44,369 nt of DNA from an uncultured Desulfobacteraceae bacterium (GCA_964392545.1 CAYMQN010000006.1:1-44369); one strand, 5' to 3'; positions 1,813 through 40,452 are shown, counted from the first letter of the stretch. Numbers and translations: made by a program. Notes: generated by a model from the sequence alone, not told the origin.

Positions 1813-1833
1813 GATCTCAAGGCTCCTGCCATT

Positions 1834-3882
1834 TCATTCGGATTCCGGCCCTGCCGGCAGATTGTCCAGGGTGGCCGCAAGCAGGTCGTCGTCCACCAGG
1901 TAAGGCAGGGTGGCATGGTCGCGGCCCCCGGATCGGCGGTTATGGCCGGCCATGGTTTCGAGGGCGTTGGGGTTGCGGGCCCAGGCCCGCCGCGCCACAC
2001 CCCCCAGAACGTCCCAGGGCATGGCCCGGCGGATGATGGCGTCCACCCGCTCGCTGCCGTCGAGCACCAGGCCGAAGCCGCCGTTGACGGCCTTGCCGAT
2101 ACCCACGCCGCCTCCGTTGTGCAGGGCCACCAGACTCATGCCCCGCGCGGCGTTGCCGGCAAAGCAGTGGGTGGCCATGTCGGCCATGACATTGCTGCCG
2201 TCGTGGATATTGGCGGTTTCCCGATAGGGCGAATCCGTGCCGCCGGTGTCGTGGTGGTCGCGCCCCAGCATGACCGGACCGATGACGCCCTCGCGGACCA
2301 TGGCGTTGAATTTCAGTGCGATGCGGGTGCGGCCGTCGGCATCCTGGTAAAGAATGCGGGCCTGGCTGCCCACCACCAGCCGGTTTTGGCCGGCATCGCG
2401 GATCCAGTTGTAGTTGTCGCGGTCCTGGAAACGCCGTTCGGGATCGATGCAGGCCAGGGCGGCCCGGTCGGTGGCCTCCAGGTCCTCGGGCCGGCCGCTG
2501 AGGCAGACCCAGCGGAAAGGCCCGTAGCCGTAATCGAAGAGCAGCGGCCCCATGAGATCCTCCACATAGGAGGGGTAGATAAAGCCTTCCAGAGTGTCGC
2601 GGCCGTTGCGGCAGACGTCCTTCACGCCGGCGTCGAAGATCGCCTTCAGAAAGCTGTTGCCGTAATCGAAGAAATAGGTGCCCCGCGCCGTGAGCTGCCG
2701 GATGAGGTCGAAATGGCGTTTGAGGGAAGCGTCGACCAGGGTTGCGAAGCCGGCGTGGTCCGTTCTGAGCAGGGCCGTGCGCTCCTCGAAGGAAAGGCCC
2801 TGGGGGCAGTAGCCCCCGTCGTAGACCACGTGGCAGGAGGTCTGGTCGGAGAGCAGGTCGATGGATTCCCCATGCTCGACGGCATGGGCCAGCAGGTCCA
2901 CCACGTTGCCGTGAAAGGCGATGGCCGCGGGGGTCCGGGAGGCCTGGCAGCTCCGGGCCTGCCGGAACGCTTCGGCCGGATCCGCCGTCACCTGGTCCAC
3001 CCAGCCCTGGTCGTGCCGGGTGCGGATGCGGGAAGCGTCCACTTCGGCGATGATGCCGACCCCTCCCGCAATCGCAACGGCCTTGCCCTGGGCGCCGCTC
3101 ATGCCGCCCAGGCCGGAGGAGACGAAAAGCCGGCCTTCCAGGGCCCCTTCGGCCTGGGTGCCGAAGGTGCGCCGGGCGGCGTTGAGAAGGGTGCTGTAGG
3201 TGCCGTGGACGATCCCCTGGGGGCCGATGTACATCCAGCCCCCGGCGGTCATTTGTCCGTAGTTGGCCACCCCCAGGGCCGCGGCCCGGTTCCACTGCGC
3301 GGAGTCGTCGAATTCGCCCACCATCAGGCCGTTGGTGATGATCACCCGCGGCGCCTCGGGGCTGGAGGCAAACAGCCCCAGGGGATGGCCCGAGGCCATG
3401 ACCAACGTTTGTTCGCGGGTGAGTTCCTCAAGGTAACCCTTGATGAGGCGGTACTGCATCCAGTTCTGGCAGACCTGGCCGGTTTCGCCGTAGGTCACCA
3501 GCTCGTAGGGATACAGGGCCACATCGACATCGAGGTTGTTGTCGATCATGACCTGGAAGGCGCGGCCCTCGATGCAGCGGCCGCGGTAGGTGTCGATGGG
3601 CTGGGCGCGAATGGCCCCCCGGGGGCGGAAGCGGTAGCCGTAGATGCGCCCGCGCGACTGCAGCTCCTCCAGAAATTCCGGGGCCAGGGCCGCATGCCAG
3701 GCCGGGGGGATATAGCGCAGGGCGTTTTTAAGGGCCAGAGCGGTCTCGGAGCGGCTCAGGCGGATGTGGCGCCGGGGGGCGCGCCGGATGCCGTCCTGGA
3801 AAACGGCCGGACCCGGCATCTCGCGGAACACGTCGGCGAGTCGAATGCGCATGGCGTCGTGGATGTCCTGATTACCGAGCAT
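1834..3882 (-). CDS. hutU: Urocanate hydratase (urocanase), long ~680-aa form
   Basis: Urocanase motifs are present throughout (LALKNALRYIP, GQMTAGGWMYIGPQGIVHGTY, GGMSGAQ, HDTGGTDSPYRETANI). The ORF is open to 3972. The ATG at 3882 is preceded by GGGAGG plus a 5-nt spacer, whereas the ATG at 3972 has no SD, so I prefer 3882. Confidence 0.88.
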   Translation of the reverse strand: MLGNQDIHDAMRIRLADVFREMPGPAVFQDGIRRAPRRHIRLSRSETALALKNALRYIPPAWHAALAPEFLEELQSRGRIYGYRFRPRGAIRAQPIDTYRGRCIEGRAFQVMIDNNLDVDVALYPYELVTYGETGQVCQNWMQYRLIKGYLEELTREQTLVMASGHPLGLFASSPEAPRVIITNGLMVGEFDDSAQWNRAAALGVANYGQMTAGGWMYIGPQGIVHGTYSTLLNAARRTFGTQAEGALEGRLFVSSGLGGMSGAQGKAVAIAGGVGIIAEVDASRIRTRHDQGWVDQVTADPAEAFRQARSCQASRTPAAIAFHGNVVDLLAHAVEHGESIDLLSDQTSCHVVYDGGYCPQGLSFEERTALLRTDHAGFATLVDASLKRHFDLIRQLTARGTYFFDYGNSFLKAIFDAGVKDVCRNGRDTLEGFIYPSYVEDLMGPLLFDYGYGPFRWVCLSGRPEDLEATDRAALACIDPERRFQDRDNYNWIRDAGQNRLVVGSQARILYQDADGRTRIALKFNAMVREGVIGPVMLGRDHHDTGGTDSPYRETANIHDGSNVMADMATHCFAGNAARGMSLVALHNGGGVGIGKAVNGGFGLVLDGSERVDAIIRRAMPWDVLGGVARRAWARNPNALETMAGHNRRSGGRDHATLPYLVDDDLLAATLDNLPAGPESE

Positions 3883-3994
3883 GGCGACCTCCCTGAGGCC
3901 GGGGATGCCCGCGGGGCCACCAACGGCGACAGGGGGGGCCTTCCGAGCCTCATTTTCGATCTTTTGAACCATTTGAAATTACATTGAAATGGTA

Positions 3995-4024
3995 TTGACA
4001 TGTGAATTTTGGAATGTGTATAGA
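3995..4024 (+). promoter_or_regulatory. Candidate sigma-70 promoter for hutC (TTGACA, 18-nt spacer, TATAGA)
   Basis: TTGACA at 3995..4000 and TATAGA at 4019..4024, in the only AT-rich stretch between divergent hutU and hutC. The operator palindrome begins 2 nt downstream. Confidence 0.35.
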
Positions 4025-4025
4025 C

Positions 4026-4037
4026 TTGTATATACAA
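4026..4037. promoter_or_regulatory. Putative HutC (GntR-family) operator, perfect 12-bp palindrome TTGTATATACAA
   Basis: Perfect inverted repeat at 4026..4037, preceded by the related half-site TGTATAGAC at 4017..4025. GT-N-TA-N-AC / TGTATA-type palindromes are the known recognition pattern of HutC-subfamily repressors. It sits between divergent hut genes. Confidence 0.55.
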
Positions 4038-4056
4038 CTGCGCTGCCTACTGTCAA
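4029..4056 (-). promoter_or_regulatory. Candidate sigma-70 promoter for hutU-hutI (TTGACA, 16-nt spacer, TATATA)
   Basis: The minus strand reads TTGACA (4056..4051), a 16-nt spacer, then TATATA (4034..4029). The -10 element lies inside the operator palindrome. Confidence 0.35.
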
Positions 4057-4178
4057 TATGGTTTGATGGTCGGGAAGCCGGAGGTGTTTTCCGGTACGAT
4101 CCAGGCCGAACAGGGCGAAACGTGGCCTGAACCGAAAACGACGCTTTCAGGGCGCCCCCTCAGGAACGAGAACACGCC

Positions 4179-4934
4179 ATGCGCCACCGCCGACAACCGA
4201 ACCGCCCGCGGCGGCCCCTCTACCAGGAGGTCAAAGCCCATGTCCTGGATCGGATGCAACGGGAAGCATGGCCCCCCCATTATCGGGTGCCGTCCGAAAA
4301 TGCTCTGGTGGCCAGGCTGGGCGTCTCCCGCATGACGGTCAACCGGGCCCTGCGGGAACTGTCCGCCGAAGGGCGCCTCTACCGGCTTCAGGGGGTGGGT
4401 ACCTTCGTGGCGGCCCAAAAGCCGGACGCGGCGTTTTTGACGGTCCGCAGCATCGCCGACGAGATCCGCAGCCGGGGGGGCATCCACCGCAGCGAGGTGC
4501 TCCTGTTGCAGGAGGAAGCCGCCCCCGAGGCGATTGCCGATGTCATGGGGCTGCCCCGGGAAGCCCGGGTGTTCCACGCCGTTCTGGTGCACATGGATCA
4601 CGGTGTGCCGGTGCAGTACGCCGAGCGCTTCGTCAATCCGGCCGTGGCTCCCGATTTCCTGAAGCAGGATTTTGACCGCATAACCCCCAGTGAATATCTT
4701 TTGCGCGTTGCACCGGTGACGGAGGCCGAGCACGTGGTGGAGGCTTCGCGCTGCGAACCCCGCATCCGCCGGCTGTTGCAGATGCCCGAAGACGAACCCT
4801 GCCTGGTCCTGTACCGCACCACCTGGGTGGCATCCGCGGTGGCCACCCGCAACCGGTTCGTCTATCCGGGATCACGCTTCCGGATCGGCAGTCGTTTCCG
4901 CGTTAAACCGGAAGATACCCATCCGGTCATTTGA
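4179..4934 (+). CDS. hutC: Histidine utilisation repressor, GntR/HutC family
   Basis: N-terminal winged-HTH (LPSENALVARLGVSRMTVNRALRELSAEGRLYRLQGVGTFV) plus a UTRA-like C-terminal domain. Divergent from hutU and directly upstream of hutH. Confidence 0.88.
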   Translation: MRHRRQPNRPRRPLYQEVKAHVLDRMQREAWPPHYRVPSENALVARLGVSRMTVNRALRELSAEGRLYRLQGVGTFVAAQKPDAAFLTVRSIADEIRSRGGIHRSEVLLLQEEAAPEAIADVMGLPREARVFHAVLVHMDHGVPVQYAERFVNPAVAPDFLKQDFDRITPSEYLLRVAPVTEAEHVVEASRCEPRIRRLLQMPEDEPCLVLYRTTWVASAVATRNRFVYPGSRFRIGSRFRVKPEDTHPVI

Positions 4935-4967
4935 GGCCGTCGCCAGAACAGGCCTGGGAGAGGGACG

Positions 4968-6497
4968 ATGCATACCATCGCGTTGGGAATGGACGGCATG
5001 CGGTTGGACGACCTCGTGCGGATTGCCCGTCAGGGAGCGGCCGTAACGCTGCGTCCGGCCGCCCGGGAGCGCATCCGGCGGGCCTGGCGGCTGATCACGC
5101 GCTGGGTGGCCGAAGAGCGCACGGTCTACGGCGTGACCACCGGTTTCGGTGCGCTGAGCGATGTCGCCATTTCCAGGGCCGATACCCGCCGTCTGCAGTT
5201 CAATATCCTCAAGAGCCATGCCGTGGGGGTCGGCGATCCCCTGGCGGCCGAGATCGTGCGGGCCATGATGGCCCTGCGGATCAAGGACTTCGCCCGGGGC
5301 AACGCCGGGGTGCGCACGGAGACGGTGGACGCCTGGATCCGCCTGTTGAATGCCGGCGTCGTTCCGGAGGTGCCGGAGAAGGGTTCGGTGGGGGCCAGCG
5401 GCGACTTGGTGCCGTTGGCCCATGTGGGCATCGTGCTGATCGGTGAAGGCCGGGCGGAGGTGAACGGGCAGCGGGTTTCGGGACGGGAGGCCTTGGCCGC
5501 CTGCGGCCTGGAGCCGCTTCAACTGGAGGCCGGCGAGGGGCTGGCCATGATCAACGGCACCCAGGCCATGACGGCCATCGGCGCCCTGGCGGTCCACGAT
5601 GCGGCCCGGCTCGCCGCCCACACGGATCTGGCCGCCGCCATGAGCACCGAGGTGCTCATGGGCAGCAAGACCGAATTCGACCCGCGCATCCATCGCCTGC
5701 GCCCGCACCCCGGCCAGGCCGTGGCCGCCGGGAACATGGACCGCATCACCCGCGACAGCGAGATCATTTCCTCCCACCAGGACTGCAAGCGGGTCCAGGA
5801 CGCCTATTCCCTGCGCTGCTCGCCCCAGGTGCACGGCGCCAGCCGGGACGCCATCGCCTACACCCGCCAGGTGCTGGAAACCGAGATGAACGCCTCCACC
5901 GGCAACCCGCTGATCTACCCGGAAAGCGGGGATTTTCTGCTGGGCGGCAATTTCCACGGCCAGCCGGTGGCCCTGGCGCTCGATTTCATGTGCATGGCCG
6001 TGGCCGAACTGGCCAATATTTCGGAGCGCCGCATCGAGCGGCTGGTCAACCCCAAGTTGAGCGGTCTGCCGGCCTTCCTGGTCAAGGACGGCGGGCTCAA
6101 TTCCGGCTTCATGATCGCCCAGTACGTGGCCGCCGCCCTGGTGTCGGAAAACAAGGTCCTGAGCCATCCGGCGGTGGTGGATTCCATCCCCACCTCGGCC
6201 AACAAGGAGGATCACGTTTCCATGGGCACGATCTCGGCCCGCAAGTGCCGGGAAGTGGTCCGCAACGCGGAGAACGTGGTGGCCATCGAGCTGCTCTGCG
6301 CGGCCCAGGCGCTGGACCTTTTCACCAATATGCAGCCCGGGGCGGGCACCCGGGCCGCCTACGATGCCATCCGCCGGGTGGTGCCGCATCTGGAAAACGA
6401 TCGGATCCTCTCCGAGGACGTCAAGCGCGTGGTGGACCTGATCCGCGCAGGGGAGATCATGGCGGCGGTCGAACCCCAGATCGGTCCAGTGAGGTAA
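4968..6497 (+). CDS. hutH: Histidine ammonia-lyase
   Basis: 509 aa. MIO-forming Ala-Ser-Gly triad in context (GSVGASGDLVPLAH). Aromatic ammonia-lyase motifs (NGTQAM, QDAYSLRC, GNFHGQP). Strong SD GGGAGAGGGA upstream. Confidence 0.93.
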   Translation: MHTIALGMDGMRLDDLVRIARQGAAVTLRPAARERIRRAWRLITRWVAEERTVYGVTTGFGALSDVAISRADTRRLQFNILKSHAVGVGDPLAAEIVRAMMALRIKDFARGNAGVRTETVDAWIRLLNAGVVPEVPEKGSVGASGDLVPLAHVGIVLIGEGRAEVNGQRVSGREALAACGLEPLQLEAGEGLAMINGTQAMTAIGALAVHDAARLAAHTDLAAAMSTEVLMGSKTEFDPRIHRLRPHPGQAVAAGNMDRITRDSEIISSHQDCKRVQDAYSLRCSPQVHGASRDAIAYTRQVLETEMNASTGNPLIYPESGDFLLGGNFHGQPVALALDFMCMAVAELANISERRIERLVNPKLSGLPAFLVKDGGLNSGFMIAQYVAAALVSENKVLSHPAVVDSIPTSANKEDHVSMGTISARKCREVVRNAENVVAIELLCAAQALDLFTNMQPGAGTRAAYDAIRRVVPHLENDRILSEDVKRVVDLIRAGEIMAAVEPQIGPVR

Positions 6498-6500
6498 CCC

Positions 6501-8123
6501 ATGCCGAAGATTGTCGAATGTGTCCCCAATTTTTCCGAGGGCCGGAATCAGGAGGTCATCGAGGCGCTTGCCGCGGCCATCCGCCGCACCGAAGGCTGCA
6601 CGCTGCTCGATGTGGATCCGGGGAAATCCACCCACCGTACGGTCTATACCTTCGTCGGATCGCCGGAGACCGTTGTGGAAGGGGCCTTGAATGCGGCCCG
6701 CGTGGCCCGCGAGCGCATCGACATGCGCACCCACAGCGGAGAACATCCGCGCATGGGGGCCCTGGATGTATGCCCCTTCGTGCCGGTGGCCAACGTCACC
6801 ATGGCGGAATGTGCGGCGGTGGCGCGGGAGTTCGCCCGCCGGGGGGCGGAGGAGCTGAAGGTGCCCTTTTATCTCTACGAGGCTGCCGCCGATCCCGCGC
6901 AGGCGCATCGGCGTACCCTTAGCCAGATCCGCGAAGGCGAGTACGAGGGGCTGGAGGAAAAACTCAAACAAGCGGCCTGGCGGCCGGATTACGGTCCGGA
7001 CCACTTCGTGCCGGAATGGGGTGCCACGGTCACCGGTGCCCGTCCTTTTCTCATTGCCTACAACGTCAATATCCTGGGCACGCCCAACCAGGCCCACCGC
7101 ATCGCGCTCAATCTGCGCGAAGCCGGGCGGGGGCCCGATGCGCCGGGTCGTTTCAAGGACGTCAAAGGCATGGGCTGGTTCGTGGACGAATACAACCTGG
7201 CCCAGGTGACGGTCAACCTGACCAATTATCGCGTGACCCCGCCGCATGTGTTTTTCGAAGCGGTCCGTGAGGAGGCGGCCAAACTGAACGTGACCGTGGC
7301 GGGATCCGAGGTGGTGGGCCTGCTGCCCCTGGAGGCCATGCTGATGGCGGCCGACGATTATATCGGTCGGGAAAACCTGTTGATCTACGAGGAGGACCAG
7401 AAGATCCGTCTCGTGGTGGACCGCCTGGGCCTCAATAGCGTGGCGCCCTTCGACCCCATGGAAAAGATCATCGAATACCGCGTGGCCGAAGCACCCGAGG
7501 AGCCGCTGGCCGGCGCCAGTCTGCGGGCGTTTATCGAGCAGATCGGCGCCCGCACCTCGGCGCCGGGCGGCGGGTCGGCTTCGGCGGCGATGGCCGCCGT
7601 CGGGGCGGCCCTGGGCGCCATGGTGGCCAAGCTGACCTACGGGGTGCGCAAATTCGAAACGGTCGATCCGCAGATGCGGCGGGTCATTCCGGTCCTGCAT
7701 GACGCCGTGCAGCGGCTGATCCCGATGATCGACGCCGACACGAACGCTTTCGGCGATTACATGGAAGGGGTGCGGATGCCCCAGGAGACGGATGCGCAAA
7801 AGGAGGCCCGCCGCCGGAAGATGCAGGCGGGGCTCGAAACGGCGGTGGCCGTGCCCCTGGAGACCATGAAGCTTGGCGACGGCGTCTGGGAAAGTCTCTG
7901 CGATGTGGCCCGTTTCGGCAATCCGGCCTCGCGCTCGGACGTCGAAGTCGGTGCCCGGGCGCTCGAGGCCGGCATCTGGGGCGCCTACCGCAATGTGCGG
8001 ATCAACTTGGAGGAGATCGACGACGCGGCGTTCAAAGCGGCCATGACCCGGGAGGCCGAACAACTGGCCCGGCGCGCCGAAGCCAAATGCGCCGAAGTGC
8101 TGGCGCTGCTCGCGGGCCGGTGA
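6501..8123 (+). CDS. ftcD: Bifunctional glutamate formimidoyltransferase / formimidoyl-THF cyclodeaminase
   Basis: The N-terminus MPKIVECVPNFSEGRN is the classic formiminotransferase start. The C-terminal ~200 aa carry the cyclodeaminase motifs (APGGGSASAAMAAVGAALGAMVAKLT, NVRINLEEI). The gene starts 3 nt after the hutH stop. Confidence 0.9.
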   Translation: MPKIVECVPNFSEGRNQEVIEALAAAIRRTEGCTLLDVDPGKSTHRTVYTFVGSPETVVEGALNAARVARERIDMRTHSGEHPRMGALDVCPFVPVANVTMAECAAVAREFARRGAEELKVPFYLYEAAADPAQAHRRTLSQIREGEYEGLEEKLKQAAWRPDYGPDHFVPEWGATVTGARPFLIAYNVNILGTPNQAHRIALNLREAGRGPDAPGRFKDVKGMGWFVDEYNLAQVTVNLTNYRVTPPHVFFEAVREEAAKLNVTVAGSEVVGLLPLEAMLMAADDYIGRENLLIYEEDQKIRLVVDRLGLNSVAPFDPMEKIIEYRVAEAPEEPLAGASLRAFIEQIGARTSAPGGGSASAAMAAVGAALGAMVAKLTYGVRKFETVDPQMRRVIPVLHDAVQRLIPMIDADTNAFGDYMEGVRMPQETDAQKEARRRKMQAGLETAVAVPLETMKLGDGVWESLCDVARFGNPASRSDVEVGARALEAGIWGAYRNVRINLEEIDDAAFKAAMTREAEQLARRAEAKCAEVLALLAGR

Positions 8124-8206: not shown

Positions 8207-8725
8207 ATGCGCAAGGCCGTCAGCGATATCCTGCTAAGCTGGGAGCGCCAAGACCGGCCGCCGACCCGGGACGACTACCTGGCGGGGGCCCGGGCGCTCG
8301 CGGCCCTGCGTCTCAAAGGCGCCGGCCGCGGCCTGTGGCCGCAACCGCCGCGTATGATCACCGCCACTTTGGATGACGGATGGGGGCACGGCCTTGACGT
8401 GATCGAAGCCCTGGCCGCTGCCGTGGGCGTCGATGTGCAGCGCCTGGGCCTCCTGCAGCCGCCCGAGGCCATCGTGGAGGTCTGCCGGACACAGGCGCCC
8501 GACCTGCTGGGCCTGACCGTGCTGCAGTTCGACAGCGACGAAGCCCTCGGCGCGATAACGGACGCGCTGCCACCGCAAACCACCCTGATTGCCGGGGGGG
8601 CGGCCTTTCGCTACGACCCGGAGTTGGCCGCCCGCACCGGCACCCATGCGGTGGCCCGCGATGGAGCCGCTTTCCTGCAGTTTCTGATCGCTTACGAATA
8701 CCTTCCGTCGGGCACGCCCCGATGA
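8207..8725 (+). CDS. B12-binding-domain-like protein (degenerate DxHxxG)
   Basis: 172 aa. The segment MITATLDDGWGHGLDVIEALAAAVGVDVQRLG...PDLLGLTVLQ...TLIAGGAAF follows the Rossmann-like cobalamin-binding domain layout. The canonical DxHxxG reads WGHGLD, so His is kept and Asp is lost. SD AGGAAGAGG upstream. Confidence 0.5.
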   Translation: MRKAVSDILLSWERQDRPPTRDDYLAGARALAALRLKGAGRGLWPQPPRMITATLDDGWGHGLDVIEALAAAVGVDVQRLGLLQPPEAIVEVCRTQAPDLLGLTVLQFDSDEALGAITDALPPQTTLIAGGAAFRYDPELAARTGTHAVARDGAAFLQFLIAYEYLPSGTPR

Positions 8726-12849: not shown

Positions 12850-13458
12850 CTAGAAAAAGCCGACCATCGACAGAAGGATCAGAATCACGGACAGCAAGAG
12901 GCCGATGGTTCCCGTCAATACCGGGCGGCGCAAGACGAAGCCATCGAAGGCATCGTTGTAGCTGTCCAGCCGATCCACCAGCGATTGGGTGCCGATCCAG
13001 GTGTTCAGGCGCCTTTCGATGCGCTGCAGGCGATGGGGGGCGATCATCAGGGCCAGGCCGAGCAGCAGGCCGATGGTGCCGGCGATTTTTCCGAGCAGCA
13101 TCATGGCCTCCAAGGCCATTTCCCCCAGCAGGCGTTGGGTACCCTCCAGGTCCAGAACCGCCAGCAAATCATCGGTGTCGATCTGGCATACCAGAAAGAT
13201 GAGCACCATGACGGCCCCCACGGTGAGCAGGGCGCCGTAGACGAGGGGATGGCGGTAAATGAAAAGGGTATTGGGAAATGTACGGTCGAAATAGGCGAGG
13301 CGCTCCTTGACGTGATAGCTGCGGCTGAGAAGGGCGTTGAGGTGGCGGATGCGCTCCGGGAAGAGCAGCAACCCCAGGGACAGCAACAGCCCGGCGACGC
13401 CGCACAGAATGGTCAGAAGCGCGGCGGCGTCGAGGCCGATAGCGATGAGGGGGGTCAT
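12850..13458 (-). CDS. Hypothetical integral membrane protein (about 4 TM helices)
   Basis: 202 aa with four clear hydrophobic segments. SD AAGGGGA upstream. I recognise no family. Confidence 0.6.
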   Translation of the reverse strand: MTPLIAIGLDAAALLTILCGVAGLLLSLGLLLFPERIRHLNALLSRSYHVKERLAYFDRTFPNTLFIYRHPLVYGALLTVGAVMVLIFLVCQIDTDDLLAVLDLEGTQRLLGEMALEAMMLLGKIAGTIGLLLGLALMIAPHRLQRIERRLNTWIGTQSLVDRLDSYNDAFDGFVLRRPVLTGTIGLLLSVILILLSMVGFF

Positions 13459-32176: not shown

Positions 32177-32299
32177 AATCCAAGCTTATACTGCGGGTGA
32201 ATTTCCTGAAGTCCCGTCCGCCGGATGGGACGTTCAGCGCGACGCATGGTTTTGGGGCTGTTGCCGACGTCGGCCGGCCTCATGGAAGAGGGGAGCACC

Positions 32300-35068
32300 A
32301 TGACCGATCAGAATCAGTTGACGATCAACGGGAATGCCATTGCCTTTGAGCCGGGCGAGACGATCCTCGAGGTGGCCCGGCGCAACAGCATCGACATTCC
32401 CACCTTGTGCTATCTGAAGGGGGCCACGCCCACGGGCGCCTGCCGCATCTGCGTGGTTGAGGTGGAGGGTGCCCGGACCCTGCTGCCGGCCTGCGCGACC
32501 CCGGCCGGCAAAAATATGGTGGTCCAGACCGAGTCGCCCAAGGTCGTGGAGGCGCGCCGCACCATCCTCAAACTGCTGCTGGCCTCGGGCAATCACAACT
32601 GCGCGGCCCGGGGTTCGGACGAGGGCGACTGGACCGTTTTTCAACTTGCGGTGGAAAAGGACGATCACAGCGACCAGCTCTGCCCGGTGTGGGGGGACTG
32701 CCGTCTGCAGGATCTGGCCTACCGCTACCAGGTCACCGGCGAGGGTCTGCCGGGAACCGTGATCCCCTATCCCATTGAAGACGTGAACCCCTTCATCGTT
32801 CGGGATTTTTCCCGTTGCATCCTCTGCGGGCGCTGTGTCCAGGCCTGCAACGAAGTGCAGGTCAACAAGGCCATCAGTTTCGGTTTCCGCGGATCGGAAA
32901 CCAAGATCATCGCGGCCGGCGACAAGCCGCTCAAGGATTCCGACTGCGTCTTCTGCGGCGAGTGCGTCCAGGCCTGTCCGGTGGGTGCCCTGGTGGAGAA
33001 GGATGTGCGCTACGATGTGAGACCCTGGGAGACCGAGCGCGTGCACACCACCTGCACCTACTGCGGGGTGGGGTGTCAGCTCCACCTGCACGTTCGCGAC
33101 AACCGGGTGGTGAAGGTCACGGGCGTCGAGGACGTGGCGCCCAACTACGGCAGCCTGTGCGTCAAGGGGCGTTTCGGCTACAACTTTATCGGGTCCCCGG
33201 ACCGCCTGACCCAGCCCTTGATCAAGAAGGACGGCGAATTCAAGGAAGTCGGCTGGGACGAGGCGCTGGATTTCGTCGCCCAAAAGCTGACGGCCATCCG
33301 AGAGGACCATGGTTCCGAGAGCATCGGGCTGTTGACCTCGGCCCGCATCACCAACGAGGAGAACTACATCGCCCAAAAATTTGCCCGGGCGGTGCTCAAG
33401 ACGAACAACGTGGACCATTGCGCCCGTCTCTGACATAGCTCCACCGTGGCCGGTCTGGCCGCAGCATTCGGCAGCGGGGCGATGACCAACACCATCGCCT
33501 GTGTCGAGAAAGCCGACGTAATCCTGATCACAGGCTCCAACACCACCGAAAACCATCCGGTGATTTCCGCGGGGATCAAGCGCGCGGTGCAGTCGGGCCG
33601 GACGCGCCTGATCGTGGTGGACCCGCGTCGCATCAAGGTCACCGAATTCGCCGAATCCTATCTGCGCCCCAATCTGGGCACCGACGTGGCCTGGATCAAC
33701 GGCATGATGAATGTCATCATCGCGGAGGATCTCTACGACAAAACCTTCGTGGCCGAGCGCACCGAGGATTTCGACGCGCTCCAGGCCATGGTGGCCAAGT
33801 ACACCCCCGAATACGTCGAACCCATCACCGGCATTCCGGCCGAACAACTGCGGGAGGCCGCCCGCCTGTATGCCCGCGCCAAGGTCGGTAATATCGTATA
33901 TTGCATGGGCATTACCCAGCATACCTGTGGGACCGACAACGTCAAGTCGCTGGCCAACCTGGCCATGCTGTGCGGCAACCTGGGCATGCCCGGGGGCGGC
34001 GTGAACCCCCTCCGGGGCCAGAACAACGTCCAGGGGGCCTGCGACATGGGCGGGCTGCCCAATGTGTTTACCGCCTACCAGCCGGTGACCGACGAGGCGA
34101 TCAGCCGCAAGATGGCCGAGGCCTGGGGGGTGGAGGGCCTGTCCCTCAGCATGGGCATGAAAGTCACCGACATGATTCCCGCCGCTCATGACGGCCGCTT
34201 GAAGGCGCTCTACATCATCGGCGAAAACCCACTGGTGTCCGACCCGGATCTCAACCACGTCGAAGACAGCCTGGCGCATTTGGCGCTTCTCGTGGTCCAG
34301 GATCTGTTTTTGACCGAAACCGCCCGCAAGGCGGACGTGGTGCTGCCGGGCCGCTGTTTTGCGGAGAAGGACGGCACCTTTTCGAACACCGAACGGCGGG
34401 TCCAGCGGGTGCGCAGGGCGGTGGCGGCACCGGGGGAGGCCTGGGACGACTGGAAGATCCTGACCGAATTGGCCCGCCGCATGGGCCATCCCATGGAATT
34501 TGCCGACAGCGAGGCCATTTTCGAGGAAATCCGCCGGGTGACCCCCTCCTATGCCGGCATCACCTACAAGCGCATCGCGCAGGAGGGGCTGCACTGGCCT
34601 TGCCTGAACGAAGAGCACCCCGGAACGCCGGTGCTCCACAGCGCCCAGTTTACGCGGGGCAAGGGGAAGTTTCACGCCATCGAATGGCAGGCGCCGGCCG
34701 AAGTGCCCGACGCGGAGTTTCCACTCTACCTCACGACGGGCCGTTTGCTCTACCAGTACCACACGGGGACCATGACCATGCGCTCGCCGGACCTGGTGGA
34801 GCGGGCGCCGGAGAGTTTCGTGGAGATATCCCCCCAGGATGCCGCAGCCTTCGGGCTGGAGGATGGGGGGTGGATCAGCATCGCTTCCCGGCGGGGCGAA
34901 ATCCAGGCCCGGGTCAAGGTTTCCCGCAAGGCCGTTGCCGGCACGGTGTTCATCCCGTTTCATTATGCCCAGGGGGCGGCCAACAAGCTGACCAATGCGG
35001 CCCTGGATCCCGTATCGGGCATTCCCGAATACAAGGTCTGTGCCGTCAAGGTGGCCCCCCTTCACTGA
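32300..35068 (+). CDS. fdhA: Formate dehydrogenase alpha subunit, selenocysteine-containing (UGA at 33431..33433 read as Sec), cytoplasmic NuoG-like type
   Basis: The track entries 32225..33433 and 33446..35068 are in the same frame. Across the TGA the sequence reads [29 protein letters not shown], the canonical Sec/Cys active-site context of FdhF-type enzymes. The N-terminus carries 2Fe-2S and 4Fe-4S Cys clusters. The remainder has molybdopterin oxidoreductase and C-terminal dinucleotide-binding domains. There is no twin-arginine signal. The ATG at 32300 follows GGAAGAGGGGAG. Confidence 0.88.
33446..33462 (+). promoter_or_regulatory. Bacterial SECIS hairpin (apical part)
   Basis: GUGGCC-GGUCU-GGCCGC forms a 6-bp stem (one G-U pair) with a GGUCU loop. 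The GGU CUG codons are the 7th and 8th after the UGA, the same register as the GGUC loop of the E. coli fdhF SECIS. Confidence 0.7.
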
Positions 35069-35095: not shown

Positions 35096-35134
35096 CAAAA
35101 ACCCCCGGCTTCTGATGGAAGCCGGGGGTTTTTC
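35096..35134. terminator. Bidirectional rho-independent terminator between convergent fdhA and metV
   Basis: AAAAACCCCCGGCTTC-tgatg-GAAGCCGGGGGTTTTT forms a 12-bp GC-rich stem. An A-run flanks it on one side and a T-run on the other. Confidence 0.75.
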
Positions 35135-35184: not shown

Positions 35185-35859
35185 TCAGCCCTTCTTGTAG
35201 CGCGACGCGTACTCGTCCTGCACGATGATGCGGCGGGTCTGGTTCTGCCATTGCATGGCCGGTTTGAGCTTTTTGATATCCTCCAGCCGGTTCTGGGCCT
35301 TCAGGCGGTTGTAGATGTCCTGCCAGGCGCAGGGGATTTCGTTGCTGACTTCGCAGTTGCCGTTGTTGGTGCCGCCGCAGGGGCCGTTGAAAAGGCCCTT
35401 GGCGCAGCGGGTCACCGGACAGATGCCGGCGGTGTAGCCCAGAACGCATTCGCCGCAGGCGCGGCAGCGCTCTTCGTAGACGCCGATATCCCGGTCGATG
35501 CCGATGGAAACGGTGTTCACCGCGGGGAAGACGGGCGTATCCGGGTAACGCGCGGCCAGGAGCTGGGCCCCGGCCCCGCAGGCCATGGACATCAGGCAGT
35601 CATAGCGGGGCACCCGTTGGTCGAGATCCACGAGGAAGGCTTCGTTGCACTGCCGTTCCACGGTAAAGCCGTCCACCCGGGCGGCGCGGTTTTCATTCTT
35701 AAAGGCCAGATTCAGTTTCGCGTTCAGAAGATTGACTTCCTTCTGGCCGCCGGCCAGGCAGACGGACACGCAGCCGCCGCAGCCCACGTTCAGCACACGG
35801 GTGTAAGCCTGAATCGCCTGTTTGATTTCATCGAACGGTTTTCTTTTGCATTTAACCAC
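35185..35859 (-). CDS. metV: Methylene-THF reductase C-terminal-domain protein (MetV-like)
   Basis: The GTG at 35859 lies 6 nt after GGAGG. The sequence reads VVKCKRKPFDEIKQ...GCGGCVSVCLAGG...CRACGECVLGYTAGICPVTRCAKGLFNGPCGGT. The CP..C.KG..NGPCGG motif is characteristic of the MTHFR_C/MetV family. The longer track ORF (to 36189) overlaps the cytochrome gene. Confidence 0.8.
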   Translation of the reverse strand: MVKCKRKPFDEIKQAIQAYTRVLNVGCGGCVSVCLAGGQKEVNLLNAKLNLAFKNENRAARVDGFTVERQCNEAFLVDLDQRVPRYDCLMSMACGAGAQLLAARYPDTPVFPAVNTVSIGIDRDIGVYEERCRACGECVLGYTAGICPVTRCAKGLFNGPCGGTNNGNCEVSNEIPCAWQDIYNRLKAQNRLEDIKKLKPAMQWQNQTRRIIVQDEYASRYKKG

Positions 35860-35896
35860 TTGCGACCTCCAAGGGGGTAGAATTAGGGACGCTTGT

Positions 35897-36313
35897 TCAA
35901 GGCTCCGGGCGGTGGCAGGCCCCGCACATTTCGGGGCCGGAGGCCGCGTCGGCCTTGCGTGTTTCGATATGACACCCGATGCACTGGCGATGGTAGGCGT
36001 CCTGCCGCTCCAGGTCGGCCTGGTCATTGTGGCAGGCGGCACAGCGAATGGCCGGGTTGCCTTCCACCAGTTCATCCTCGTCGAGGACGTTGACCCCGTC
36101 CTCATAGGCGTGATGACACGCCAGACATTCCAGAAGCTCCATGTGCAGCTCGTGGGTGAAGGCCACGGGGGGGCGCTGGGACGGGACATCTTGATCAGTC
36201 CCTAAAACGATTTCCGCTTCCTGCGCCACGGCGCAGGGCGCCAGGGCGAGACCGGTGACAGCCAGGACAACCATGGCCAGCAGCATGGAGCGCGTTTTGT
36301 GATTCCTATGCAC
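35897..36313 (-). CDS. Periplasmic tetrahaem cytochrome c3-family protein
   Basis: The GTG at 36313 follows AAGGAGAAAGG (alternative ATG at 36286). A signal peptide reads MLLAMVVLAVTGLALAPCAVA. There are four CxxCH motifs (CLACH, CAACH, CIGCH, CGACH) in about 110 mature residues. The c3 signature F-x-H-x2-H-x4-C-x2-C-H-H is present (AFTHELHMELLECLACHH). Confidence 0.85.
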   Translation of the reverse strand: MHRNHKTRSMLLAMVVLAVTGLALAPCAVAQEAEIVLGTDQDVPSQRPPVAFTHELHMELLECLACHHAYEDGVNVLDEDELVEGNPAIRCAACHNDQADLERQDAYHRQCIGCHIETRKADAASGPEMCGACHRPEP

Positions 36314-36369
36314 GGCGTTACCTTTCTCCTTAAAGCCTCTCGGGACCACCCTCCATCGCAGGAGGGCCG

Positions 36370-36768
36370 CTACGCCTCCGGTTGTTCGAGGTCGCTCCAC
36401 TCGAAGTAGACGTCCTGGGAGCGGCAGATGTCGCGCGCCAGGGCGATCATCTCCGGGATGTCGATGCCCAGCGGGCAATAGCACCGGGTGCACAACACGC
36501 ATCGCCGCCATGCGATTTCCTTGATTTCCTCGAATTCCTCCCGGTCGATCTTCCCCTTCTTTTTGTAGAGTTTGCCGATGGAGTTGATAAACTTGTGGGA
36601 CGGCATGTAGCGGGGATCGCCTTCATGGACGTGGTACAAAAAACAGCTTTCCGCACACAGGCTGCAATGGGCGCAGACCCGCAGGGCGGTTTTCATTTTG
36701 TCGGCGTGCTGCGCCAGCATGCGGCGGATTTCCTCGTGGTCGATGGGCGCTCGATCGTCTGAACTCAT
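36370..36768 (-). CDS. Small 2x[4Fe-4S]-type iron-sulfur protein (HdrC / HdrD-N-terminal-like), no CCG domain
   Basis: 132 aa. It carries CAHCSLCAESC (CxxCxxCxxxC) and CVLCTRCYCP (CxxCxxCxCP). SD GGAGACAGGA upstream. There is no signal peptide, so it is probably cytoplasmic. Confidence 0.75.
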   Translation of the reverse strand: MSSDDRAPIDHEEIRRMLAQHADKMKTALRVCAHCSLCAESCFLYHVHEGDPRYMPSHKFINSIGKLYKKKGKIDREEFEEIKEIAWRRCVLCTRCYCPLGIDIPEMIALARDICRSQDVYFEWSDLEQPEA

Positions 36769-36793
36769 TCCTGTCTCCGCTGGAAGGCGGCGC

Positions 36794-37477
36794 TTAGCGC
36801 CACACGCGGCTCCCGCCGCTTCCCATGGTATTCTCGTGGACCAGTACGAACCGGTTGATGAAATAAAACGGCATGTGTACCAGCTTGGTGAACGGTATGG
36901 CCATCAACATGATTTCGCCGGCCAGCATGTGCAGAAGGATCACCGTATCGTAGTCGAACAGGTGATGGTAGGCCAAAAAGCCGGTGATGAAGGGGGCCGT
37001 GGCAATCAGCAGAACCAGGTAGTCATAGGCCGTTGAAATGGCCCGCACGCGGGCCAGAAAGATCCGGCGCAGCAGAAAGAAAAGGCCGCCGGCCAGAACC
37101 GCGACGGTCAGGCCGTCGGCCACCGCTTCCGGCAGGCTGGGCAGGCTGGCATGCCAGGCGATATCGAGCAGGACGTTGTGGCCCAGCACGAAAAGCGGGG
37201 TCAGCAGCAGCGCCAGGTGGAAAAGGGTCGTGACGGCGATCATGACGGGGTTGCGACCGGCCACGGACAACTGCACCTGCTGCCACCAGGTCAGCTCGGG
37301 TTCGGCGGGTGCCTCTTCGGGCTCTTGGGGCGGCTTGCCGAAGGGGATGCGCAGCCGGTAGCGCTCCCTGGGCCGGCTCAATCGGTAGAAGCGGTAGACC
37401 TGGTAGGCCGTGCCCAAGATGAAAACCAAAAAGGCGACCCACACCAGCGGGCCCCTGACAAAATCGTACATTGACAT
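36794..37477 (-). CDS. NarI/DsrM/HdrE-like membrane protein (putative dihaem cytochrome b)
   Basis: 227 aa with about 5 TM helices. Conserved-looking His residues lie in helices (TTLFHLALLL, LGHNVLL, LAYHHLF, ILLHMLAG, KLVHMPF). The overall layout resembles the nitrate-reductase gamma-subunit family. The start may be the second ATG at 37471 (GGGAG plus 6 nt). Confidence 0.7.
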   Translation of the reverse strand: MSMYDFVRGPLVWVAFLVFILGTAYQVYRFYRLSRPRERYRLRIPFGKPPQEPEEAPAEPELTWWQQVQLSVAGRNPVMIAVTTLFHLALLLTPLFVLGHNVLLDIAWHASLPSLPEAVADGLTVAVLAGGLFFLLRRIFLARVRAISTAYDYLVLLIATAPFITGFLAYHHLFDYDTVILLHMLAGEIMLMAIPFTKLVHMPFYFINRFVLVHENTMGSGGSRVWR

Positions 37478-37555
37478 CTCCCGTTAGGTTCTGTCCCTGC
37501 GGCCGGGCATTCTCCGGCGCTCTTCCCAAGGGATGCGCCGGCTTCGCCGCTGACC

Positions 37556-38476
37556 TTAGACCTCCGGCCGAGGCAGGACGCCGGCCCGTTCGGCAATCTC
37601 CGGAACCCGGTGTTCCCACTCGATGGCCATCAGGTGCACCCCGGCCACCCCCTTCATTTCCTTGAACTCCTCGATCTGCTCGCAGGCCATTTTGATCCCT
37701 TCGTCGGCCTGTTTTTTCTTGTCGACGCCCTGCAGGCGCTTGATCACATCATCCGGGACGTCCATGCCCGGCACCTTGCCCTTCATGTAGCGCGCCATAC
37801 CGAGGCTTTTCATGGGGGTGACGCCGGCCAGGATGTAGGTTTTCTCGGTGAGCCCCATATCGTTGGCCTGCCGGATCCATTCGCGCATTTTTTCCATGTT
37901 GTAGATGCACTGGGTCTGGATGAAATCGGCACCGGCCTCCACCTTTTTGGCCAAGCGGTGCACGCGCCACTCGAAGGGTTCCGCAAAAGGATTGGCCGCG
38001 GCGCCGATGAACATCGCGGGAGGGCCGTCGATCTTGCCGCCGCTCAAAAAAAGACCTTCGTCGCGCATGTGCTTGACCATGCCGATCAACTGGATGGAAT
38101 CGATGTCGTAGACGCCTTTGGCGTTCGGGTGGTCGCCGAACTGCTGGTGATCCCCCGACAGGCAGAGCATGTTGCGGATGCCGTGGGCGTAGGCGCCGAG
38201 GATGTCGGCCTGCATGGCCAGGCGGTTGCGGTCGCGGCAAACCATCTGGTAGTTCGGCTCGAGCCCCTCCTGGAGGGCGATCAGGGCGGCCGCCCAACTG
38301 GCCATGCGCACCATCGCCGTCTGGTTGTCGGTAATATTGACCGAATCCACCATCCCTTTCAGGGGCGCGGCTTTTTCGCGAACCACCTCGACGTTCGAGC
38401 CGCGTGGAGGGCCCAATTCCCCGGTAAAGGCGAAATGGCCCGCTTTGAGAATTCTGGCAAGTCTGCTTTCGCTCAT
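37556..38476 (-). CDS. metF: Methylenetetrahydrofolate reductase (acetogen/anaerobe-type MetF)
   Basis: 306 aa with a TIM-barrel MTHFR pattern (FTGELGPPRG, SVNITDNQTA, CRDRNR, LCLSGDH, ADFIQTQCIYN). SD AGAGGA upstream. Confidence 0.88.
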   Translation of the reverse strand: MSESRLARILKAGHFAFTGELGPPRGSNVEVVREKAAPLKGMVDSVNITDNQTAMVRMASWAAALIALQEGLEPNYQMVCRDRNRLAMQADILGAYAHGIRNMLCLSGDHQQFGDHPNAKGVYDIDSIQLIGMVKHMRDEGLFLSGGKIDGPPAMFIGAAANPFAEPFEWRVHRLAKKVEAGADFIQTQCIYNMEKMREWIRQANDMGLTEKTYILAGVTPMKSLGMARYMKGKVPGMDVPDDVIKRLQGVDKKKQADEGIKMACEQIEEFKEMKGVAGVHLMAIEWEHRVPEIAERAGVLPRPEV

Positions 38477-38774
38477 AGAATGATTCCTCTGTCCCAGTTC
38501 GCGTCGTCAAACGTTGCGGCGCCGGGATGACGGCAGGCGCAACGCTAATCTTATCAGGGCTATTTGAGAATTGTGGTATATGGCATATTCGCCAAACCGG
38601 TGTCAAGTTGCTGACCATTTAAAAAGGTCAATATTTCAAAGGGATTTATGCAACAAAGCCCATCGAGCCCATGTTATGAAATGATGCTCATTTGCCGTGT
38701 GGGACAATGCGCATAAGAAGGGGGAGGAGAGAAGGCGGTGGCCGTTAGGATGGGTTCAGGGACACCTGAAAAGG

Positions 38775-39191
38775 CTATTCGCCGATGATTTTGACGAGCA
38801 CCCGCTTTTTGCGGCGGCCGTCGAATTCACCGTAGAAAATGCGCTCCCAGGTGCCGAAATCCAGGCGCCCCCCGGTGACGGCCACCACCACTTCGCGCCC
38901 CATGATCTGCCGTTTCATATGGGCGTCGGCGTTGTCTTCGCCGACGTTGTGGCGGTACTGCTCGACCGGGGCGTGGGGGGCCAGCTTTTCCAGCCAGACG
39001 TCGTAGTCGTGGTGCAGGCCGGATTCGTCGTCGTTGATGAAGACGGAAGCGGTGATGTGCATGGCGTTGACCAAAGCCAACCCCTCCTGGATACCGCTTT
39101 CATCGATGCATTTCTGGACGTCGGGGGTGATGTTGATAAAGGCCCGGCGGGTGGGCACGTTGAACCACAATTCTTTGCGATAGCTTTTCAT
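38775..39191 (-). CDS. yjbQ: YjbQ/UPF0047-family protein (secondary thiamine-phosphate synthase-like)
   Basis: 138 aa. The sequence reads ...[42 protein letters not shown]...[35 protein letters not shown], a good by-eye match to the UPF0047 family. Confidence 0.8.
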
Positions 39192-39205: not shown

Positions 39206-40171
39206 CTAACCGCGCGGGTTGATTTCCCGGATGGCCTGTTCCAGGAGGCGGCCCACCTCACGGGCCCATGCAAAAGACTGGGCCTTGCGGGGGATATTGG
39301 CCATTTCATCGAAGGTGGCCGCGGTGATGTTCAACTTCTTCCAGCCTTCCTGGCCGAAGGTAATCCGGGCACTCTCGGGGTAGATGTCGAAAAGCGTGAG
39401 CACTTCGGCCCGGGGATTGCCGGGAAGCTCGTATTCCAGGCCGACCCCCTTGTTGCGGTATTGGATCTGGAGGCGTGGATTGCCGTGGAGCACATTGACC
39501 ATTTTGGAGTGCAGATAGACCAGGGCCCCGGACACCTGGCGCGAGTGGTGCCGAAGCTGGGAGAGAAAGCTCTCCACGGTCAATTGGCGGGTGCGGTCGT
39601 CGCGGAGGTGCTGGGAGGCGTTTTTGACGAACTCGATCTGCGCCTCTTCGATGCTCTGCCCCGCCAGACGCTCGGCCACGTGGTTATAAAGCGCGCTGTT
39701 TTTTTTGAAGAAATACTTTTTGCCGAGCATTGCGTCCAGCTCGCCCAGAAGTTTGTTGCCGTCCCTGCCGGTGAGCTCCTCGAAGGCAAACCGGAGGACG
39801 GGCTCGGCTTCGGAAAGATTTTCCTGGTTGAGAAGTGTGCAATAGAGCGCCATGTGCTGGCCGGTGGACAGGAAGATCCAGGGACAATTGAGGCGAAAGC
39901 TGTACTCCAGATATTGGTTGATATCCTCTTCGAGAATGTCGGACCAGGATTTGACCTCCACGATGACGGCGGGATTGTCGTCTTTGAACAGGACGATGTC
40001 GAGGCCCTGATGGTCGAAATCCATATCGCCCAACAGGTTCCACCCGATGGTCTGGAAAATGGGTACGATGATTTTGCTTTTGATGTTCTCCTTGTTGCCC
40101 TTGCGTCCGGCAACGATGTGTTTGTCGACATCGACGGATTTCAGGTGGGTGCGCAGTCTTGCAAAACTCAT
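39206..40171 (-). CDS. Hypothetical protein with N-terminal PD-(D/E)xK nuclease-like (HsdR-N-type) domain and unknown C-terminal domain
   Basis: From the ATG at 40171 the sequence reads ...[49 protein letters not shown]. This is an E...D...E-x-K arrangement as in type I restriction R-subunit N-terminal domains. About 200 further residues match no family I recognise. The gene is visibly more AT-rich than its neighbours and lies 14 nt upstream of yjbQ. Confidence 0.55.
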
Positions 40172-40452
40172 GGCCTTTGTCCCCCGAGGGTTGGGCGGTA
40201 GACGATCAGGGCATCGCCACACAGGCCTGGCCGGCAACAGGCGCTTGCAGGTACGTGCCGTGACGGGCATCGGACACCATCTCGGCGGTTGGCGAGCGAA
40301 CCGTTTGGATGGCGATCGGCCGGAATGGTCCCCTCCAACCTTCCGGCGCAAAAAAGCGAATGATTCGGGTGTTACAACAAACGATCACATCATAGCATAC
40401 AAGCGCGGGAGTTAAAAGCGGACGCGCGGCCGGCAGGGGCCTAAGCGACGGT

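Follow-up and report, generated by a model that had tools for sequence, protein, structure and literature searches.

A metF-metV cluster enclosing a Tmc/Hmc-like cytochrome module: a candidate membrane-linked methylenetetrahydrofolate reductase of Desulfobacterales

Why should the two genes of a methylenetetrahydrofolate reductase (MTHFR), metF and metV, be separated by what looks like part of a transmembrane redox complex? This question is raised by a five-gene cluster, metF-cytb-FeS-c3-metV, that lies in a 44,369-nucleotide (nt) stretch of DNA from an uncultured Desulfobacteraceae bacterium (GCA_964392545.1, CAYMQN010000006.1:1-44369; this whole stretch is called the window below). Methylene-tetrahydrofolate (methylene-THF) reduction has been suspected since 1977 to be the energy-conserving step of the Wood-Ljungdahl pathway. 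Sulfate reducers that oxidise their substrates completely account for much of the mineralisation of organic carbon in the sea, and to our knowledge the physiological acceptor for methyl-THF oxidation in these organisms is not known. An earlier note, made from the sequence of the window, had proposed the cluster as a candidate membrane-coupled MTHFR, and we find that this proposal is supported by conserved synteny, by conserved histidines, and by a promoter-like site together with a single strong terminator. We believe, with a probability of roughly 0.6, that the five genes encode one respiratory-type enzyme, in which a MetFV-type MTHFR/methyl-THF dehydrogenase is plugged, through MetV, into a cut-down transmembrane module of the Tmc/Hmc type. 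The features of the cluster are as follows.

37556-38476, minus strand: metF, catalytic flavoprotein subunit of MTHFR (TIM barrel); 306 amino acids (aa); PF02219 over residues 6-299, E=3.5e-39
36794-37477, minus strand: TmcC/HmcE-like dihaem cytochrome b with five predicted transmembrane (TM) helices; 227 aa; alternative start at 37471
36370-36768, minus strand: 2x[4Fe-4S] ferredoxin-like protein, predicted to be cytoplasmic; 132 aa; Fer4_8/Fer4_17
35897-36313, minus strand: TmcA-like tetrahaem cytochrome c3, predicted to be periplasmic; 138 aa; PF02085, E=7e-13
35185-35859, minus strand: metV, Fe-S/zinc electron-transfer subunit of MetFV-type MTHFR; 224 aa; PF12225, E=1e-36
35097-35133: bidirectional intrinsic terminator, common to metV and the convergent fdhA; 16-bp stem with U-runs on both strands
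38577-38606, minus strand: promoter-like site upstream of metF; TTGACA, 18 nt, CATATA

The five genes, all encoded on the minus strand between 35185 and 38476, are separated by gaps of 78, 25, 56 and 37 nt, as had been estimated when the cluster was described as co-directional with gaps of about 25 to 78 nt. The start of c3 was placed at the GTG at 36313, which is preceded by AAGGAG, and metV likewise starts with a GTG, preceded by GGAGG. Downstream of metV is the hairpin at 35097-35133, with folding energies of -32.5 and -33.8 kcal/mol on the two strands (z = -5.1 and -4.6). A terminator scan recovered it independently, and because a U-run follows on each strand we call it bidirectional, in line with the prediction that one such terminator closes the unit. 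The earlier note had found no internal terminator, and in our scan terminator-like matches elsewhere in the region, inside the unit, occurred at the level of shuffled sequence (5 observed against 5.2 expected).

To ask whether this arrangement recurs, a profile of the cytochrome b was scanned against one genome per species (185,579 species); it yielded 223 relatives, and we analysed the gene content of the best 80 loci by tblastn with the five window proteins. In 67 of these 80, metV and/or metF lies beside the cytochrome b. The most frequent order is c3-metV-cytb-FeS-metF (28 loci), which is found, among others, in Desulfoluna limicola, D. spongiiphila and D. butyratoxydans, in metagenome-assembled genomes (MAGs) of Desulfobacula and Desulfotignum, and in a Desulforapulum autotrophicum MAG. 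The order of the window, metF-cytb-FeS-c3-metV, accounts for 20 loci; a further 6 have cytb-FeS-c3-metV with no adjacent metF, loci of this kind including those of Desulfosarcina variabilis and D. cetonica; and 13 are other metV- or metF-linked variants and clusters cut by contig ends. The synteny seen in the window is therefore found again in its relatives and persists through reordering.

Neither metF nor metV lies beside the cytochrome b in the remaining 13 loci, and the three of these that we scanned (L060, L075 and L077, in our numbering of the loci) are bona fide Tmc clusters. At L077 the TmcD, TmcC and TmcB proteins score above the curated cut-offs, as do TmcC and TmcA at L060. In each of the three, TmcB is full-length and includes a CCG domain, a TmcD-type protein is encoded as well (593 bits on NF045725 at L077; the neighbours in L060 and L075 are of the PD40 type, like it), and L065 resembles the Tmc loci in having a long, 451-aa Fe-S protein. 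Among the 80 loci we found no cytochrome b cluster that has the short ferredoxin and lacks both metV and metF.

Ligand counts and distance matrices, here and below, refer to the 43 complete clusters. In these, each of the two main gene orders forms one clade, and one order turns into the other when [metF] and [c3-metV] trade places on either side of [cytb-FeS], which stays fixed as the core. The flanks of the cluster are entirely different between genera. Pairwise distances are correlated between cytochrome b and MetV (r=0.90), the Fe-S protein and MetV (r=0.87), cytochrome b and the Fe-S protein (r=0.86), and MetF and MetV (r=0.77), a pattern which shows that the five genes have been co-inherited as one unit, with the proviso that correlation alone is no proof of contact. 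The linkage of the module to metF and metV is not due to chance, and the five-gene cluster is widespread in Desulfobacterales, occurring in dozens of species that include cultured strains.

A number of individual loci depart from these patterns. The cluster at L017 (7001-8769) reads cytb-FeS-metV and has no c3 gene, FeS and metV being only 78 nt apart; at L078 metV precedes c3; and L070 has the order cytb-FeS-c3-metV-metF. One genome of 6.57 Mb contains two full five-gene clusters (L083 and L086; ERZ21862645 ctg38578l). The second copy, like that at L085, adjoins genes for RACo, DUF1638, flavodoxin-like and pyridine-nucleotide-disulfide oxidoreductase proteins, as is typical of the surroundings of corrinoid methyltransferase systems; this hints at a role of that copy in oxidising the methyl groups of methylated substrates.

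The membrane protein of the module had been described as NarI/DsrM-like and rich in histidine. The histidines stood up to comparison: H87 and H100 in TM2 and H183 and H201 in TM5 are present in 43/43 complete clusters, and through the TM5 motif LH..G....PF(T/S)(K/R)L(V/I)H the last two fall on E. coli NarI residues 187 and 205, taken to be the haem-ligand histidines in TM5 of that protein. The family name did not. Against NCBIfam the best match is TmcC (NF045723; 186 bits against a cut-off of 240), followed by HmcE at 173 bits, and NarI (E=2e-3) and DsrM (E=9e-3) are matched only marginally, so we replaced the NarI/DsrM identity with TmcC/HmcE. For comparison, the true TmcC proteins of L077 and L060 score 324-348 bits on the same model. 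The window protein is 40% identical to a bona fide TmcC (E=1e-54). Its relation to the wider NarI superfamily is visible in a score of 22.6 bits on PF02665, marginally below the gathering score of 22.9, and in a profile comparison with PDB sequences, in which NarI was the sole match (E=2e-4). Basic loops follow TM1 and TM3 and form the C-terminus. By the positive-inside rule, these suggest a NarI-like topology with the N-terminus outside and the C-terminus inside, which would place one histidine pair close to each membrane face.

The 132-aa protein was correctly read as having two cysteine motifs of the 4Fe-4S type and no CCG domain. The motifs are C32xxC35xxC38xxxC42 and C90xxC93xxC96xC98P, all eight cysteines of which occur in 43/43 clusters, and a ninth, C115, occurs in 42/43; Pfam found Fer4_8/Fer4_17 and did not find the CCG domain. 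Only the N-terminal parts of larger models are matched (positions 38-151 of 457 in HmcF, and 25-133 of 430 in TmcB), the score on the NCBIfam TmcB model is 90 bits against a cut-off of 735, and a true TmcB aligns over its residues 37-138 at 36% identity (E=2e-19). The 132-aa protein is a ferredoxin of the HdrC/HdrD-N-terminal type, that is, the N-terminal domain of TmcB, HmcF or HdrD without CCG. Two features set it apart: the second motif (residues 90-99), CxxCxxCxCP, has two residues less than the CxxCxxCxxxCP of true TmcB, and the signature DPxYMPSHKFINS, between the cysteine motifs, is restricted to the short MetV-linked Fe-S proteins. Nearly all of the 120 homologues listed, of 690, are about 125-135 aa long, and some are annotated as "heterodisulfide reductase subunit C". 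A comparison with PDB sequences gave nothing significant.

The third protein of the module had been called a signal-bearing tetrahaem c3 with four CxxCH motifs, and this description holds. It matches PF02085, and its N-terminus, judged by eye, is signal-like: the n-region is basic and is followed by a hydrophobic core and the sequence AVA-Q. Besides the four CxxCH motifs, His48, His59 and His99 are found in 43/43 clusters, and His45 in 42/43. The best NCBIfam match is TmcA (NF045722; 75 bits against a cut-off of 114), and alignment with a TmcA shows 42% identity (E=1e-16). Among PDB sequences the best matches are the HmcA domains (E=2.6e-16), followed by chain 3cao (E=2.6e-14), which we take to be the D. 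africanus c3, acidic and of the type II/TmcA class. Most other tetrahaem c3 entries lie far behind, with E values of 1e-4 to 1e-2, and 1w7o and 2cy3 fall in between (about 3e-7). Because TmcC-like and TmcA-like proteins are combined with only the ferredoxin domain of TmcB, and the CCG domain and TmcD are lacking, we regard the inserted genes as a derived, cut-down Tmc/Hmc module. Of the building plans that had been considered for the module, Tmc/Hmc is thus retained and the DsrMK/NarI type is not favoured, on the NCBIfam scores. Among Pfam families, MTHFR, MTHFR_C, Fer4-type and Cytochrom_CIII were matched in the cluster as anticipated, and the cytochrome b family fell short by the small margin given above.

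MetF matches MTHFRs among PDB sequences; MetV gave nothing significant there. With the exception of L070 (57%; a MAG labelled Myxococcota), the complete clusters have a module-linked MetF of 77-94% identity, and 13 cysteines of MetV are invariant in 43/43. The two genes share one predicted operon with three genes between them; a direct juxtaposition of the two is confined to rare variants, L070 among them. Additional copies were also seen. At L059, L061, L062 and L067 the membrane-linked cluster has further, divergent metF genes (27-33% identity) on its flanks, accompanied in three of the four by a metV copy (41-43% identity), and L039 carries a closer second pair at 2-1312 (MetF 67%, MetV 39%). 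At these loci, therefore, several MTHFR paralogues are grouped together.

Upstream of metF, the sequence CTTGACAC is identical in 10/10 related loci, in an alignment that includes the window. A TG.CATA block about 18 nt past it is mostly invariant in the same loci, and the spacer around has diverged. The site is missed by a consensus scan because the last base of its -10 element deviates. This pattern of conservation suggests that the site is the promoter of the five-gene unit. We also considered the perfect palindrome TGACC-N9-GGTCA (TGACCATTTAAAAAGGTCA, 38612-38630), just upstream of the -35 element, for which only 0.05 matches are expected by chance; it is missing in close relatives and is probably not a conserved operator, and we dropped the idea. 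Farther upstream, at 38676-38691 on the minus strand, is an inverted repeat, ATGA-N8-TCAT, with TGA and TCA cores that are invariant in the 10 related loci. It may be a binding site for a regulator.

From gene content, homology, cofactor ligands and linkage we infer a physical complex of the five proteins, and for it an electron path, a direction and a mode of energy coupling. The Fe-S protein, MetV and MetF are predicted to face the cytoplasm and c3 to be exported, and MetV-MetF would replace, at the cytoplasmic end, the CCG domain of TmcB together with TmcD. On the cytoplasmic side, electrons would be exchanged between the CH3-THF/CH2-THF couple, the flavin of MetF, the Fe-S clusters of MetV and the two [4Fe-4S] clusters of the 132-aa protein. 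From the latter they would cross the membrane by way of two b haems to the four c haems of the TmcA-like cytochrome and to the soluble c3 pool, each step being reversible, and from this pool they could go to hydrogenase, formate dehydrogenase, Qrc or menaquinone. Such a path is plausible because Tmc and Hmc have been described as electron carriers between periplasm and cytoplasm (PMC5109826), and because the electrons of a known MTHFR, type IV, have been proposed to arrive at MetV via the Fe-S subunits HdrC and HdrB (PMC9430772). That the module descends from Tmc and has a conserved c3 subunit points to the c3 pool as the likelier partner.

The standard potentials (E0') of the couples concerned are -200 mV for methyl-THF, -320 mV for NAD+, -74 mV for menaquinone and -414 mV for H2 (PMC9430772, PMC8578096). 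Because methyl-THF is unable to reduce NAD+, a complete oxidiser requires a different acceptor; menaquinone would also be a favourable one. The oxidative direction is probably the physiological one in a complete-oxidising sulfate reducer. Methyl-THF electrons would then exit to the periplasmic or membrane pool that is used by Qrc, Tmc and Dsr and feeds sulfate reduction, and the membrane potential would help their outward flow. In the reductive direction, during autotrophy, the oxidation of periplasmic H2 or formate would send electrons inward to methylene-THF; protons would be released outside and consumed inside, and these scalar protons would give rise to a proton-motive force. The transfer of electrons from periplasmic H2 to cytoplasmic methylene-THF releases 41 kJ/mol (with the values in PMC9430772 and PMC8578096), and this scheme has been demonstrated biochemically for membranes of Sporomusa ovata (PMC9430772).

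Several points weigh against reading the cluster as one membrane-spanning enzyme. The AlphaFold model of the cytochrome b, built from an 18-sequence alignment, is poor, with a predicted local distance difference test (pLDDT) score of 61 and a predicted template modelling score (pTM) of 0.47. A Foldseek search with this low-confidence model places NarI chains at ranks 1-8 without significance (E of at least 0.045; template modelling score about 0.31), and given the poor model and these E values we count the ranking as weak support. The model of the Fe-S protein (pLDDT 72) has no significant fold match in the PDB, the best being SdhB of Complex II with a template modelling score of 0.47. The unit is not strictly invariant, since six loci lack an adjacent metF and L017 lacks c3. 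The outward transfer of electrons to c3 costs membrane potential, and the net gain in the oxidative direction is therefore uncertain. Finally, Desulfobacteraceae carry additional, Hdr-linked MetF paralogues, any of which could be the catabolic MTHFR, and these paralogues are constitutively formed according to the supplement of PMC11887813.

Three other explanations of the cluster deserve consideration. The complex could be the same and yet have menaquinone as its membrane partner, with a quinone/quinol site on the cytochrome b, as in NarI, DsrM or HdrE, and with c3 as an auxiliary entry or exit. The membership of the cytochrome b in the NarI superfamily (near threshold on PF02665, and NarI its sole PDB sequence match) agrees with this, as does the fact that at -74 mV menaquinone is thermodynamically a good acceptor for methyl-THF at -200 mV, and the cluster at L017 suggests that the module may function without c3. 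The nearest curated families are nonetheless TmcC and HmcE, with NarI and DsrM reaching only E values of about 1e-3 to 1e-2, and we know of no report in which Tmc was shown to interact with quinone. A dedicated c3 with conserved haem ligands has been kept in nearly all clusters, which favours a periplasmic partner, and menaquinol would need an input of energy to drive the reductive direction. We therefore consider menaquinone an unlikely partner, while giving it more weight than either of the explanations that follow.

A greater departure would be that the inserted genes form an independent, miniature Tmc-like conduit for ferredoxin, DsrC or the like, linked to metF and metV by co-regulation or hitch-hiking, and that MetFV is a soluble enzyme of type II. 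Purified type II MetFV is indeed soluble and takes ferredoxin in vitro (PMC8760232), the 132-aa protein could in principle dock elsewhere, and an adjacent metF is missing in six loci. Among the 80 loci, however, the clusters with the short ferredoxin are always linked to metV and/or metF, the linkage withstands internal rearrangement and relocation to unrelated flanks, and MetV distances follow MetF less closely than they follow the cytochrome b and the Fe-S protein, so that we regard an independent conduit as improbable. To about the same small degree we entertain the idea that MetF and MetV are here a specialised paralogue and not the Wood-Ljungdahl MTHFR, acting on methyl groups of methylated substrates or on another pterin or substrate, with the membrane module as an electron sink. 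The occurrence of two clusters in the 6.57-Mb genome, one of them beside neighbours of the corrinoid-methyltransferase type, would fit such a role, as would the several MetF paralogues of Desulfobacteraceae and the D. autotrophicum MAG, in which we found no Wood-Ljungdahl genes within 6 kb of the cluster. The very high conservation of MetF (L070 apart) instead fits a central enzyme, and in the clade of the window the cluster adjoins a selenocysteine formate dehydrogenase, another enzyme of the Wood-Ljungdahl pathway. A specialised paralogue would, moreover, alter only the source of methyl-THF and leave the mechanism unchanged.

If the five genes do encode one MetFV enzyme on a Tmc/Hmc-type module, the consequences extend beyond this locus. 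MTHFRs have been classified as type I (MetF), type II (MetFV), type III (MetFV-RnfC2) and type IV (MetFV-HdrCBA-MvhD) (PMC8760232), and according to reviews, sequenced genomes had offered no evidence of an MTHFR bound to the membrane (PMC8578096, PMC8760232). The cluster might be a fifth architectural class, with its own cytochrome b and c3, that provides complete-oxidising sulfate reducers with an outlet, hitherto missing, for the electrons of their oxidative Wood-Ljungdahl pathway and, when reversed, with a true site of chemiosmotic coupling. We offer this wider interpretation tentatively, at slightly less than even odds. If it is true, the fifth class would act as a methyl-THF:cytochrome c3/menaquinone oxidoreductase, and its reverse mode would be a methylene-THF respiration driven by the oxidation of periplasmic H2 or formate. 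The operon spells out an explicit route that starts at MetF and leads by way of a membrane cytochrome b to a periplasmic c3, by which the questions of energy coupling and of the acceptor become directly testable in experiments, and it suggests that Tmc-type modules have been re-used through exchange of their cytoplasmic catalytic end.

The earlier note knew of no characterised MTHFR with such partners, and in the full-text literature searched we likewise came upon no paper that joins metF or metV to a module of the cytochrome b, Tmc-like or c3 kind; the main comparative review on the energy metabolism of sulfate reducers (Pereira et al. 2011) lies outside that literature, and an earlier mention is possible. 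A figure legend in the genome paper on D. autotrophicum HRM2 (PMC2702500) contains the words "MetF-ABC, methylenetetrahydrofolate reductase", which could refer to this module, and the text and supplements of that paper give no explanation of it.

The remainder of the window holds several further features of note. Convergent to metV is fdhA (32225-35068, plus strand), predicted to encode the alpha subunit of a selenocysteine formate dehydrogenase; its in-frame TGA (33431-33433) falls within the motif HCARL-U-HSS, and the protein is extended at its N-terminus by a 2Fe-2S/4Fe-4S region. This gene stands beside the cluster in the clade of the window (L002-L014, L043) and not in other clades. Directly upstream of the cluster is a gene of the YjbQ/UPF0047 family (38775-39191, minus strand), which is also found upstream, at about 0.3-5.5 kb, in many loci that have the order of the window (e.g., L002, L009-L013 and L043). 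A histidine-utilisation block at 535-8123 encodes a HutI-like amidohydrolase, urocanase, a GntR/UTRA regulator, histidine ammonia-lyase and formiminotransferase-cyclodeaminase, and from its gene content would supply C1 units to the tetrahydrofolate pool; it is followed by a gene for a B12-binding-domain protein (8207-8725). Two open reading frames on the minus strand, at 39206-40351 (381 aa) and 12850-13458 (202 aa), have coding-like composition and no Pfam match at E<=1e-5. Rfam and tRNA scans across the window gave no matches.

How, then, does the cluster compare with systems that are already known? Its closest counterparts are TmcABCD and HmcABCDEF, with which it shares a TmcA-like c3, predicted to be periplasmic, a dihaem cytochrome b of the TmcC/HmcE type and the two-cluster ferredoxin domain of TmcB/HmcF, and, like them, it presumably moves electrons between periplasm and cytoplasm. 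The three inserted proteins are 36-42% identical to true Tmc subunits, yet all three fall under the curated equivalog cut-offs, and the five-gene unit has neither a CCG (HdrB-like) domain nor a TmcD-like gene, having MetV-MetF at its cytoplasmic end. With the NarI, DsrM and HdrE proteins of NarGHI, DsrMKJOP and HdrDE the cytochrome b shares its superfamily, the five-helix plan and the histidine pair of TM5, and the Fe-S protein corresponds to a partner domain of the HdrD/DsrK type; those systems, in contrast, are quinol oxidases with catalytic subunits of the molybdo- or CCG type and have no comparable c3.

Among the MTHFRs, the type II MetFV of acetogens such as Clostridium ljungdahlii has the same core of MetF and the Fe-S/zinc protein MetV, and type II MetF has been described as having no NAD(P)H-binding site (PMC8760232). 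Type II enzymes, however, are soluble and have metV next to metF, whereas here three membrane-module genes separate or flank the two. The type IV enzyme (MetFV-HdrCBA-MvhD, as in Moorella thermoacetica) is similar in that MetFV is joined to a module with an HdrC-type ferredoxin. It differs in that HdrA, HdrB and MvhD are absent between and beside the five genes, which have the YjbQ-family gene and fdhA as neighbours, and the cluster contains neither a flavin-based bifurcation module nor an NADH site. The HdrCBA-MvhD-MetVF of S. ovata is attached to the membrane and couples the oxidation of periplasmic H2 to methylene-THF reduction, its integral partner not having been identified (PMC9430772). 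Given these data the concept of a membrane-linked MTHFR is already known and only the architecture is new: unlike in the type IV system of S. ovata, the membrane anchor and the periplasmic cytochrome are here encoded within the operon itself.

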